IMG/VR virus record: IMGVR_UViG_3300028888_000002
Strand: one strand, 5' to 3'
Length of the DNA stretch: 64,000 bases
Origin: a virus
Taxonomy: Duplodnaviria; Caudoviricetes
Position numbers and translations under genes: made by a program. Positions 2,835 through 63,971 of this stretch are shown piece after piece. The notes under the pieces were generated by a model. It had not been told where the DNA came from and did no database searches. It worked only from the letters and a program-made list of their open reading frames with translations. Numbering within the stretch: position 1 is the first letter of the stretch; the number at the start of each line of letters is the position of its first letter.

Positions 2835-3123
2835 GGTGGTGACGTTCCTTGACGAAATGGGCTACCGCCTGGACGTGGCGGGCGTTCTTACCGAAGTCAA
2901 GCAGGAATACAATTCAAACAAGCACGGGCTTAAACCCGCAGGCAATCCGTTCAAGGACACGGTTACTGTCGGCAATACGGTTGTTAGGTTGGACGATATT
3001 GAAACCCTGCAAATCGCAGGCGACGAAAACGATTACACCTTTAGCGAAGACAACATAAACCGTGTGTCACGCATACAGGACATTTTACTTTCTAAACTAA
3101 TGGGGAAATCTTATGGTTGGTGA
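2824..3123 (+). CDS. hypothetical protein
   Basis: Tiled ORF. Confidence 0.7.
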   Translation: MIVRVVTFLDEMGYRLDVAGVLTEVKQEYNSNKHGLKPAGNPFKDTVTVGNTVVRLDDIETLQIAGDENDYTFSEDNINRVSRIQDILLSKLMGKSYGW

Positions 3124-3574
3124 CGAACTGAAAGAACCGCAAAATTCCTATGGAATGAACGTATATGACCTTATGAACTATCACGGGCTATCCACGTCCG
3201 CTAAATTGGTTGAACAGGTCGTGGAAGCGTTGCAGCGTGAAATCCGCAAGTTGAAAAAGGACAAAGCGGACCTGTGCAAGATGTGGGGGATTGTCCCTGG
3301 CACGAAACGCAGGAAGGCTATGCAGGTCCGTATTGTCAAGGAAGAACACCTGCTGCTTGACGGAAAGTTGAGTGTCCACTACGTCCCCGAATACAAGGGG
3401 TGGTTCTTTTGGAACAGGTTCGTGGAATACGATTGCGATTCCTGTTGCACCCAAGCGTCGTTTAAAACCCACGAAGAAGCCCAGGCGTTTCTTGACAATG
3501 CCGTGCGTATGCGTGGCAGGGATTTGACGACGGTAGTTGCCGTGGACGAAGCCGAACGAACGGGCAAGTCCTAG
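3113..3574 (+). CDS. hypothetical protein; N-terminus paralogous to 17669-18250
   Basis: DELKEPQNSYGMNVYDLMNYHGL vs DELYRPLNSQGMNVFDIMEFHGM. Confidence 0.75.
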   Translation: MVGDELKEPQNSYGMNVYDLMNYHGLSTSAKLVEQVVEALQREIRKLKKDKADLCKMWGIVPGTKRRKAMQVRIVKEEHLLLDGKLSVHYVPEYKGWFFWNRFVEYDCDSCCTQASFKTHEEAQAFLDNAVRMRGRDLTTVVAVDEAERTGKS

Positions 3575-3603: not shown

Positions 3604-3643
3604 CAAATTACCTGTTGACAACACGCAGGTAATTTGTTATATT
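3604..3643 (+). promoter_or_regulatory. repeated phage early promoter (class 1) with perfect 11-bp inverted repeat
   Basis: TTGACA 3615-3620, 17 bp, TATATT 3638-3643; CAAATTACCTG/CAGGTAATTTG flank the -35. Confidence 0.9.
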
Positions 3644-61460: not shown

Positions 61461-61742
61461 CTACGAAAGTGCGAGAGTAGGCGTTTCCTGCGGGAGCGTC
61501 GGGGTTTCAGCAGGAACCGTCGTCGCTTCCGTGTTTTCCTGGCTGTGCTTCTTCTTATAGAGCCAGGTGCTATACGACATACCGTGAATGCGTTTGAACT
61601 TGTCAAGCCATTTGCGTTGCCGTGTAATGGGCTTTTCTGTGGGAGGGTTAAGGACTATGCCATACCTGGCTAGGTCCTTTTCTGCGTGTTCGGCTATCCG
61701 CTGTTGGAGTAGCTTGTAGAAATTTACGGGTTCGTCTGCCAT
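61461..61742 (-). CDS. hypothetical protein
   Basis: AAGGA RBS; promoter-like site at 61775-61803. Confidence 0.65.
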   Translation of the reverse strand: MADEPVNFYKLLQQRIAEHAEKDLARYGIVLNPPTEKPITRQRKWLDKFKRIHGMSYSTWLYKKKHSQENTEATTVPAETPTLPQETPTLALS

Positions 61743-61836
61743 ATCGTGTTTTCCTTGTCGGGAGTTTATAATAAATATATAACAATTTACTATAATCTGC
61801 CAACAGGTAATCCACAAAATGCTGTCAAAAATGTAG

Positions 61837-61923
61837 CGGAGCGGGCAGGATTCGGACCTGCGGTGAGCAAGACCCACGGTTCTTTAGCAAAGAACTGCCA
61901 TAGACCAACTAGACGACCGCTCC
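61837..61923 (-). tRNA. tRNA-Ser(GCT)
   Basis: GGAGCGG/CCGCTCC acceptor, GTTCT-TTGCTAA-AGAAC anticodon arm, long variable arm. Confidence 0.9.
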
Positions 61924-61934
61924 AAAAATGTTAG

Positions 61935-62017
61935 TGCCGATTGCAGGATTCGGACCTACGAAGACTTGCGTCGGGTGATTTACAGTCACCTGCCTTTGAC
62001 CGCTAGGCTAAATCGGC
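61935..62017 (-). tRNA. tRNA-Tyr(GTA)
   Basis: GGTGA-CTGTAAA-TCACC anticodon arm, long variable arm. Confidence 0.9.
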
Positions 62018-62025
62018 ATTGTTAG

Positions 62026-62099
62026 CTCTACCGCCACGATTCGGACGTGGAACTTCCCGATTAACAGTCGGGCGTTCTACCAGGTTGAACTACGGCAGA
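62026..62099 (-). tRNA. tRNA-Asn(GTT)
   Basis: CCCGA-CTGTTAA-TCGGG anticodon arm. Confidence 0.9.
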
Positions 62100-62105
62100 A
62101 TAATT

Positions 62106-62180
62106 CGGGGAAAGTGTGGGAGTCGGACCCACCTCACACATACCGTGATATGTGCAGTTCACCACGACGCTAAAGTTCCC
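62106..62180 (-). pseudogene. degenerate tRNA-like element
   Basis: T-arm GTGGG-TCCGACT-CCCAC intact; acceptor and D stems weak; anticodon loop 6 or 8 nt. Confidence 0.6.
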
Positions 62181-62193
62181 AAAAATGTTTTCG

Positions 62194-62302
62194 TGGACAC
62201 CCTCCGATTTGAACGGAGCGTTCCGTAATACTTTCGCAGCGTCCTATCCTTTCTTTTGGCGTTTTGCGATACCTTACGGCAGGTCCCGTAGCCACGGTGC
62301 CC
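62194..62302 (-). ncRNA. 109-nt tRNA-like RNA with Ala identity (G3.U70, A73) and an extended stem in place of the anticodon arm
   Basis: GGGCACC/GGTGTCC-A acceptor; CTCCG-TTCAAAT-CGGAG T-arm; CCGTAA/TTACGG and TCGCA/TGCGA stems. Confidence 0.7.
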
Positions 62303-62313
62303 AAAATGTTTCG

Positions 62314-62386
62314 TGGAGCGTATCGGACTTGAACCGATGACCTCCCGCTTGCAGGGCGGGCGTTCTACCAACTGAACTAACGTCCC
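62314..62386 (-). tRNA. tRNA-Ala(TGC)
   Basis: CCCGC-CCTGCAA-GCGGG anticodon arm, G3.U70. Confidence 0.85.
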
Positions 62387-62390
62387 ATAG

Positions 62391-62463
62391 TAGTTCCATA
62401 GGGCTTTGAACCCTAGTCTTTAGGTTGAAAACCTAATGTCCTAGACCGCTAGACGATGGAACC
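62391..62463 (-). tRNA. tRNA-Glu(TTC)
   Basis: TTAGG-TTTTCAA-CCTAA anticodon arm. Confidence 0.9.
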
Positions 62464-62475
62464 ATAATTTGTTCG

Positions 62476-62550
62476 TGTGACGGGGTGGATTTGAACCACC
62501 GACACGAGGATTTTCAGTCCCCTGCTCTACCAGGCTGAAGCTACCGCCAC
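62476..62550 (-). tRNA. tRNA-Phe(GAA)
   Basis: GGGGA-CTGAAAA-TCCTC anticodon arm. Confidence 0.9.
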
Positions 62551-62559
62551 ATAAAGGCT

Positions 62560-62593
62560 AAACAAAAAACCACGTTGCTTGTCGCAGCGTGGC
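62560..62593 (-). terminator. attenuator terminator upstream of the tRNA operon
   Basis: GCCACGCTGC-GACAA-GCAACGTGGT followed by TTTTTGTTT. Confidence 0.85.
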
Positions 62594-62626
62594 TTCCTGT
62601 TTAACCCTTGAAAAACACTTGGAATA

Positions 62627-62713
62627 TCACCACGACTGCGAATACGCAAAATAGGCTTCGGCAAAACTAGCCTCGGCTTCAAAATAAAAGTTATTTGCGT
62701 AATTCTTGTTCAT
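62627..62713 (-). CDS. 28-aa leader peptide MNKNYANNFYFEAEASFAEAYFAYSQSW (putative tRNA-operon attenuator peptide)
   Basis: AGGA RBS; lies between promoter and terminator; composition matches downstream tRNAs; below the ORF track cut-off. Confidence 0.85.
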   Translation of the reverse strand: MNKNYANNFYFEAEASFAEAYFAYSQSW

Positions 62714-62736
62714 AGTGATTTTCCTATACGTCGCCT

Positions 62737-62765
62737 AATATAGATTATTCGGGAACCCGTGTCAA
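62737..62765 (-). promoter_or_regulatory. tRNA-operon promoter
   Basis: TTGACA (62765-62760)-17-TATATT (62742-62737), with class 2 AATAATCTATATT context. Confidence 0.9.
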
Positions 62766-63542: not shown

Positions 63543-63971
63543 TTACTTGTCCCAATCGGGGTCGTGTTCGGGTTTATGCAGCAGCCCCATTTCTACTGCC
63601 AAATCATTGTAAACGTCGTCAACCGTGCTGCGAACGGTATCGCACAGCCTGTCAGCGATTTTATTGAAGTAAGTCTTCATTTCCTTTGCGGACGATTCAC
63701 GGACGGCATTCACGGGGCTATCTGTCATTCCCCAACAGCCCGTGAACAAAGTTATATCCTTTACTTCCAGGACTTCTTTAACCAGGTCGCCCAACTTGTA
63801 GCCAAATTCGGGGTCATATACTTTGCCCGTATTCAATACGGTAAGGATAGGATTTCCGTTGTTCGCATTCAAGCGGAAAAACTTTCGGTTACTCTTGGAA
63901 CGATACAGAATGCTAGGCTTAATCTTTGCCATAATGCTTTCTTTTAGAGCGACGGCAAGTTCCCGCTTCAA
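63543..63971 (-). CDS. hypothetical protein, probably 5'-truncated by window edge
   Basis: Frame remains open toward the window end. Confidence 0.7.
   Translation of the reverse strand: MKRELAVALKESIMAKIKPSILYRSKSNRKFFRLNANNGNPILTVLNTGKVYDPEFGYKLGDLVKEVLEVKDITLFTGCWGMTDSPVNAVRESSAKEMKTYFNKIADRLCDTVRSTVDDVYNDLAVEMGLLHKPEHDPDWDK

Follow-up and report, generated by a model that had tools for sequence, protein, structure and literature searches.

Leader, terminator and tRNA genes at the locus

The DNA analysed here, called the window, is a 64,000-nucleotide (nt) stretch (IMG/VR record IMGVR_UViG_3300028888_000002) from a large phage of ruminant gut bacteria, and it carries an operon of six tRNA genes that is preceded by a short leader open reading frame (ORF) and an intrinsic terminator, all read on the minus strand. 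The leader ORF has 28 codons and a UGA stop codon (62627-62713). Ahead of it lie a promoter, TTGACA-17-TATATT (62737-62765), which agrees with the consensus at 11 of 12 positions, and a Shine-Dalgarno (SD) motif, AGGA (62725-62722), placed 8 nt ahead of the ATG, a gene-like spacing. Behind it is the terminator (62560-62592), a 9-bp stem (62592-62584 with 62578-62570) with a GACAA loop, followed by U6 (62569-62564) and then GUUU. An earlier note on this DNA, made from the sequence alone, had claimed a promoter, ribosome binding site, ORF, terminator and tRNA genes in this order, and every one of these elements was found at the positions it gave. There is no promoter-like site in the 10 nt between the terminator and tRNA-Phe, and the tRNAs can therefore be made only via read-through of the terminator.

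The first gene of the operon is tRNA-Phe (GAA; 62475-62550), and it is followed by tRNA-Glu (UUC; 62390-62463), tRNA-Ala (UGC; 62313-62386), tRNA-Asn (GUU; 62025-62099), tRNA-Tyr (GUA; 61934-62017) and tRNA-Ser (GCU; 61836-61923), all identified by both ARAGORN and Rfam. Two further RNAs between tRNA-Ala and tRNA-Asn are tRNA-like by their folds and drew no tRNA call from ARAGORN or Rfam. The first (62190-62302, about 113 nt) has an acceptor stem, a T-arm and a long irregular middle, and the second (62104-62181, about 78 nt) has an acceptor stem and a T-arm. The operon ends with tRNA-Ser, after which come the next promoter (61803-61774) and the next gene. The SD motif and spacing of the leader resemble those of that next protein gene (AAGGAAAACACGATATG at 61742).

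The window contains 16 exact TTGACA-N16-18-TATATT sites against an expectation of 0.02, and the promoter of the tRNA operon, being one of them, belongs to a real promoter class. Other members of the class start, for example, at 3615, 6649, 14839, 18423, 21119, 42391, 56406 and 59186. Most of the 16 share an extended GGTAATTTGTTATATT -10 region, and the spacer of the tRNA-operon promoter differs from this pattern. Together the 16 look like the phage's set of host-polymerase promoters.

This stretch was present in sheep, goat and cattle gut runs from 14 studies, and the phage is a member of a group that is widespread in the ruminant gut. A search of the protein collection with the upstream 128-amino-acid protein returned near-identical relatives only (L001-L003), whose leaders are the same as that of the window and so give no covariation signal, and no locus for this protein was found in IMG/VR. 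The downstream 93-amino-acid protein has more distant homologues, and these, together with a leader DNA pattern, yielded the informative relatives (L010, L011, L012, L013/L019, L015/L020, L018, L024 and L025). A second, degenerate leader pattern found no further relatives. Nine aligned relatives from ruminant-gut metagenomes (sheep, goat, cattle and buffalo) represent seven distinct versions of the leader, and two relatives (L019 and L020) are phage genomes of about 215 kb that are rated 99 to 100% complete. Among the INPHARED phages there was no relative of the window, with matches limited to tRNA genes, and searches of PHROGs and Pfam with ten neighbouring proteins gave nothing useful. The contig label of L025, 'Clostridia bacterium', may be a binning artefact.

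The leader ORF is kept in all seven versions, and both promoter hexamers are unchanged across the nine aligned relatives. In every relative having a Phe-first cluster, CGTATAGGAA is invariant, and the promoter, SD motif, AUG, a reading frame of 27 or 28 codons and the UGA are kept as well.

Codon content of the leader

The leader is spelled almost entirely in codons for the amino acids that the operon's own tRNAs carry. The earlier note had counted 22 of the 23 codons from 2 to 24 as cognate to the six tRNAs, with the single Ser codon of the AGU type, and our recount agrees. Over the whole leader the figure is 22 of 27 sense codons (0.81). When codons readable by the six anticodons were counted in every six-frame ORF of 15 codons or more (n = 1281), the leader was the sole outlier in the window, the next best ORF reaching 0.52 against a background of 0.25 to 0.29. 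Likewise, the leader locus is the only place in the 64 kb where a stretch of 23 codons has more than 15 cognate ones. The binomial probability of at least 22 cognate codons of 23, at p = 0.29, is about 2e-11.

The relatives narrow the signal to codons 5 to 24, the regulatory stretch, in which all seven versions use Asn, Tyr, Phe, Ala, Glu and Ser-AGU codons exclusively, following the pattern N-Y/A/N/N/F..E-A-E-A-S..A-E-A-Y-F-A-Y. Codons 2 and 4 alone depart from the set across versions (K, R and I). Variable sites within codons 2 to 24 fall at the third codon position in eight cases, the second in four and the first in one, and the codon variants include AAU/AAC, UUU/UUC, GAG/GAA and GCU/GCA/GCC. 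The only amino acid changes in the core are Y/F/N and F/Y exchanges, which stay within the six amino acids. In the window a Phe codon has been inserted behind the Ser codon and, independently, L018 has gained one ahead of it, with the frame kept both times. Insertions and deletions inside the ORF are of whole codons, whereas those in the 5' untranslated region and the spacer are of 1, 2 or 4 nt. The third-position bias and the whole-codon changes are indirect signs of a leader that is translated. As far as sequence can tell, in-frame selection on the tRNAs that are called for explains the pattern better than would selection for one particular peptide or for an untranslated RNA. The leader peptide has no match in NCBIfam or Pfam.

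Alternative pairings and the position of the ribosome

Three segments of the leader RNA, together with the 3' arm of the terminator as a fourth, can form mutually exclusive helices. Segment 1 (62710-62725) consists of the SD motif, its spacer and the AUG. Segment 2 (62621-62641), the switch strand, consists of the last four codons, the stop codon (62629-62627) and UAUUCC, and can pair with either segment 1 or segment 3. Segment 3 (62582-62597), GGAA plus the 5' arm of the terminator, pairs with segment 2 to form the antiterminator or with segment 4 to form the terminator. The loop of the antiterminator is a conserved spacer, CCAAGUG..UUU..GGGUUAAAC (62601-62620). On folding, the terminator and the antiterminator were seen to share segment 3, which is the mutual exclusion that the earlier note had asked to see, and segment 1 was paired with the tail of the ORF in the minimum free energy (MFE) fold. 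The antiterminator that the note had drawn between the tail and the 5' arm consists of two 6-bp runs separated by a one-base bulge, and it is extended by UUCC pairing with GGAA to reach -24 kcal/mol.

The antiterminator is conserved through compensatory change. The last four residues of the peptide vary (SQSW, ALQW, SVRC, VSQW and SPQW) and co-vary with the 5' arm of the terminator, so that the duplex of segments 2 and 3 (tail and UGA-UUCC with GGAA and 5' arm) has -18 to -25 kcal/mol in every variant. Duplexes between non-cognate tails and arms are clearly weaker, and across six representatives no assignment of tails to arms sums to more than the cognate one, which 2 of 720 permutations equal. 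Of the antiterminator cells in the alignment, 85.5% are paired, against 29 to 58% for slid controls, and four pairs have changed on both sides. The MAFFT alignment sets tails of the window type out of register with the others; alignment pair counts consequently understate the antiterminator, and per-sequence duplexes were relied on too. For the terminator, 97.6% of cells are paired, five pairs are doubly changed and none of 500 shuffles attained the score. The stop codon falls within the switch segment in all versions, and its distance to the U-tract is 57 to 66 nt across the relatives. The duplex of segments 1 and 2 has -13 to -19 kcal/mol in all variants, and in L015 an insertion and a change in the tail compensate each other. 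What these sequences show directly is the anatomy, together with its conservation and covariation.

In the window the terminator is extended to a 26-bp helix (62551-62609, minus strand; -35 kcal/mol), in which the A-rich GGGUUAAACAGGAAG pairs with the U-tract and the 10 nt preceding tRNA-Phe; the 3' part of the conserved spacer pairs with the U-tract region in this helix. By eye, the alignment retains this extension only partly in relatives. Possible roles of the extended helix are to make the terminated leader RNA more stable or to shape the substrate of RNase P.

The covariation bears on whether the leader encodes a peptide with a function of its own. A functional peptide of 27 to 28 residues, with its own promoter and terminator, would explain why the peptide sequence is well conserved; read-through would then be leaky and constitutive and would supply the tRNAs, and the leader would resemble the tRNA set by coincidence. 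There is a precedent in Sinorhizobium trpL, for which terminated leader RNAs and peptides with functions in trans are known (PMC7298713, PMC6614838). Such a coincidence would, however, have a chance of about 2e-11 and is unique in the window. The four C-terminal residues vary freely as protein while the pairing of their RNA with the terminator arm is kept, a Phe codon has been inserted at two different places, there is no family match in the two protein family collections searched, and a stop codon inside the terminator-complementary strand is left unexplained. We regard a functional peptide as quite improbable.

The strength of the pairing could also point to a structured RNA that is not translated, for example a processing signal, a small RNA or a protective 5' structure for the tRNA precursor, the ORF being incidental. 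Indeed, the region folds far better than shuffles (z = -6.7), the long invariant ORF stretches UACGCAAAU and UUUUGCGUAU pair mutually, and the terminator helix in its extended form runs into the 5' leader of tRNA-Phe. An incidental ORF, on the other hand, would not be expected to have a conserved SD motif at gene-like spacing, an AUG and an in-frame UGA, nor a third-position bias with whole-codon insertions and deletions confined to the ORF, and no Rfam family matches the region. This explanation appears highly improbable to us.

The position of the ribosome was simulated by masking a footprint, its size taken from general knowledge, at each codon. Folding of the full leader under such a mask always yields the terminator. 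Since the switch would be kinetic, the equilibrium fold of the full leader is uninformative, and it was replaced by the nascent RNA before the 3' arm has emerged, in five variants. With the A site anywhere from codon 2 to about codons 21 to 23, the antiterminator was the MFE structure in four of the five variants; in L018, the pairing of segments 1 and 2 competes with it at many codons upstream of about 21 to 23. With the A site from about codon 22 to 25, depending on the variant, to the stop codon, the antiterminator cannot form in any of the five. The range of stalling positions that would open the gate thus coincides with the six-amino-acid stretch.

These features suggest the following mechanism. 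Host RNA polymerase would start at the consensus promoter, and a ribosome would load on the 28-codon leader. If decoding is fast, the ribosome would reach the UGA and cover segment 2, the terminator helix of segments 3 and 4 would form and transcription would stop in the U-tract before tRNA-Phe. If decoding is slow, the ribosome would linger between codon 2 and about codon 22, leaving segment 2 free to pair with the 5' arm upon its emergence, and with the antiterminator in place the polymerase would continue into the six tRNA genes. The pairing of segments 1 and 2 would act as an anti-antiterminator and at the same time hide the ribosome binding site; it probably limits re-initiation and may favour termination when the leader is not translated. 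In the folding model, the fate of an untranslated leader would depend on the persistence of this helix, which is formed first. As the output would ease the shortage in decoding by which the gate had been opened, the circuit would be a negative-feedback, demand-driven supply of tRNAs for Phe, Glu, Ala, Asn, Tyr and Ser (AGY).

The locus has the parts of an attenuator, namely, an SD-led ORF after a promoter, regulatory codons, a terminator, a conserved antiterminator and a geometry in which a ribosome at the stop codon masks the switch strand. We therefore consider it likely that a ribosome-mediated, leader-peptide transcription attenuator gates the phage tRNA operon, with regulatory codons that are those of the operon's own tRNAs. 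From the same features we infer that the ORF is translated, that its translation is coupled to the polymerase and that it responds to a shortage of tRNA or amino acid. The phage, then, probably makes the six tRNAs only when ribosomes decode their codons slowly.

Several observations weigh against an attenuator of this kind. At equilibrium the full-length RNA always takes up the extended terminator (-35 versus -24.6 kcal/mol), which requires a kinetic switch like that of trp. Nascent RNA without a ribosome prefers the antiterminator in four of five variants. The covariation of segments 1 and 2 is weak, with 64 of 720 permutations doing as well. As the relatives are few and related, the shuffle statistics overstate their independence. 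In Firmicutes the polymerase often outruns the ribosomes, and if the host is a Firmicute, ribosome-coupled attenuation would be less usual. Three of the Ala codons are GCC in every version, a poor match to the phage tRNA-Ala(UGC); the earlier note had raised this caveat and it holds. The main reader of these codons would be a host tRNA-Ala(GGC). A further relative (L004/L005) has tRNA-Tyr and tRNA-Ser only, behind an endonuclease-like gene, and no leader at all. The leaders of L012, L015 and L018 retain Ala and Asn codons despite tRNA losses, described below. On the side of the attenuator are weak hints from RNA libraries, which were examined as assembled contigs, with no true ends, strand or level and with no meaning attached to uncovered parts. 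A sheep metatranscriptome contig that begins at 63796 breaks off at 62564, where the U-tract has its last U, and a contig from a cattle RNA library (62715-62438) covers leader and terminator together with tRNA-Phe and a part of tRNA-Glu. Both termination and read-through agree with these contigs, but carry-over of DNA is possible.

tRNA gain and loss, known attenuators and significance

The tRNA content of the operon varies among the relatives. L012 and L015 have an HNH-like ORF, with a Pfam HNH match just under the cut-off, in place of tRNA-Ala and tRNA-Asn, and L018 has an HNH-like gene in place of tRNA-Asn and an extra tRNA-Ser(UGA). The first tRNA-like RNA is nearly identical in L001 and L010 and is lacking in L011 and L013; the second is present in L001 and missing in L010, L011 and L013. 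Because the leaders of L012, L015 and L018 keep their codons, leader composition does not follow these presumably recent losses. The recency of the losses means that they weaken one-to-one tracking rather than the attenuator.

The earlier note's interpretation is upheld in part, its core being the leader-peptide attenuator. The ORF, its frame, the six-amino-acid make-up and the stop position are conserved in seven versions, with compensatory changes in both antiterminator and terminator. Its expectation that leaders track their tRNA sets one to one, which it had offered as a way to refute the proposal, was contradicted in part: L012/L015 and L018 keep the codons of tRNAs that they have lost. 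The note's further reading, an inducible counter-defence against anticodon nucleases, is purely speculative and finds no support in these sequences.

An unchanged leader in relatives without tRNA-Ala and tRNA-Asn is also what would be seen if the attenuator were real but reported general translation capacity, such as ribosome availability, coupling or a global slowdown, with codon make-up being secondary. Any slowing of the leader ribosome would free segment 2, and the poor match of the GCC codons to the phage tRNA-Ala(UGC) is in keeping with this. General sensing, however, gives no reason for codons 5 to 24 to be limited to the operon's six amino acids in all seven versions, and it leaves the substitutions and codon insertions that stay within the set unexplained. 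For a uniform choice, drawing six particular amino acids from twenty has a chance of 1 in 38,760. A sensor of general capacity is thus unlikely, in our judgement.

The tRNA operon is also an insertion hot spot for mobile endonuclease-like genes. Such genes occur within the cluster at 4923-5720 in L015, 4179-4817 in L018, 1194-1859 in L004, 6435-7232 (minus strand) in L025 and from about 2350 in L003. One family is HNH-like and the other is rich in zinc fingers, and some members replace tRNA-Ala and/or tRNA-Asn. L003 additionally has a TnpB/IS605 OrfB-type gene (383-1681; Pfam OrfB_IS605 and Cas12f1-like_TNB) beside a truncated version of the gene that precedes the leader. The tRNA-Asn of L001 (1500-1574) differs from that of the window (62025-62099) at many positions in the D-arm and anticodon stem, with the acceptor stem and T-arm the same, in phages that are otherwise near-identical, and this suggests allele replacement within the operon.

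The complete 215-kb relatives (loci L026-L030, from the records of L019 and L020) also have lone tRNA genes, one or two tRNA-Met and a tRNA-Leu(CAA), between protein genes. No leader ORF or terminator lies ahead of these, and one follows directly after a consensus promoter. The leader is therefore specific to the six-tRNA operon.

Leader-peptide attenuation is known for amino acid biosynthesis operons and a few synthetase operons. Enterobacterial examples include trpL, hisL, pheL and leuL, as well as the multivalent thr leader, with Thr and Ile codons, and the ilvGMEDA leader, with Ile, Leu and Val codons. The phage element resembles attenuators of the thr/ilv/trp type in having a promoter, an SD-led ORF of regulatory codons and exclusive 2:3 and 3:4 helices, with a putative 1:2 helix, in its intrinsic terminator before the controlled genes, and in a stop-codon ribosome that would mask the antiterminator strand. 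As in the thr and ilv leaders, more than one amino acid would be sensed. Modelling of the enterobacterial leader-peptide attenuators is the subject of PMC1183508. Unlike those systems, the phage element is viral and controls tRNAs rather than biosynthetic enzymes. Its leader would sense six amino acids, which are interleaved rather than arranged in runs, and its output would act directly on decoding, making the feedback one step shorter. Segment 1 is the ribosome binding site, not the regulatory codons, and there is no sequence similarity.

The pheST operon of E. coli, encoding phenylalanyl-tRNA synthetase, has an attenuator with the Phe-rich pheM leader. As in pheST, a component of the translation apparatus would be attenuated through the decoding of a codon that its product serves; the pheST product, however, is a synthetase for a single amino acid in a cell, and the phage product is the tRNA itself. 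A T-box makes direct contact with uncharged tRNA and works without translation. It resembles the phage element in placing a choice between terminator and antiterminator, set by the state of specific tRNAs, ahead of translation-related genes, and it differs in that sensing in the phage would go through a translating ribosome. Switching between T-box and leader-peptide control is discussed in PMC2965389. A T-box riboswitch was considered as a candidate for the locus and rejected, as no T-box or other cis-regulatory Rfam family was found between 61000 and 64000 at E values up to 1.

Like phage tRNA clusters generally, this one belongs to a large genome and is likely to serve in sustaining the translation of phage genes. 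Published accounts see such clusters as supplementing codon usage or as replacing host tRNAs that were lost or cut in the course of infection, and they treat the tRNAs as simply expressed; the papers searched describe no demand-sensing gate of the kind that would stand ahead of this one. In PMC12803027, tRNA arrays are putative anti-defence elements. The genome paper of the Caulobacter phage phiCbK treats its tRNAs as a supplement for codon usage only (PMC3556154). In that phage (L032, JX100813), which has a layout like that of the window, gp083 (45 amino acids, rich in S, L, P, K, A and T) and an annotated terminator lie at 2541-2770, directly before an array of tRNA genes (Pro, Pro, Lys, Lys, three Leu, possibly Ala, and two Ser). 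The P/K/L/A/S fraction of gp083 is 0.705, barely more than the 0.699 of other frames, in a genome of 66% GC, where high GC alone gives similar compositions. A 190-nt gap after tRNA-Pro (2950-3140) holds two tRNA-like sequences, one of which has, by eye, a CGU (Thr) anticodon loop and drew no call from the programs.

We found no publication on leader-peptide control of tRNA genes, in a search that missed most subscription journals. What is new here is that tRNAs are the controlled genes, that six inputs are interleaved, that the element belongs to a virus and that segment 1 is the ribosome binding site. A more tentative idea is that codon-matched leaders are a general, so far undescribed control of tRNA genes in large phages. 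They would act as an inducible counter-measure, a six-channel detector of attack on host decoding that would switch on replacement tRNAs once the host's Asn, Tyr, Phe, Glu, Ala or Ser tRNAs are uncharged, degraded or cut by an anticodon nuclease; we consider this reading possible and rather doubtful.

If the attenuator is real, no feedback loop on decoding capacity could be shorter, and this one would belong to a virus. The element is compact, at about 200 nt, and could act as a multi-input sensor of tRNA charging. Phage tRNA genes would be dosed on demand rather than merely carried and expressed, which would explain which tRNAs a phage groups in one operon. A leader spelled in the amino acids of its operon would then be a genomic signature, predicting the decoding shortages that the phage expects in its host.

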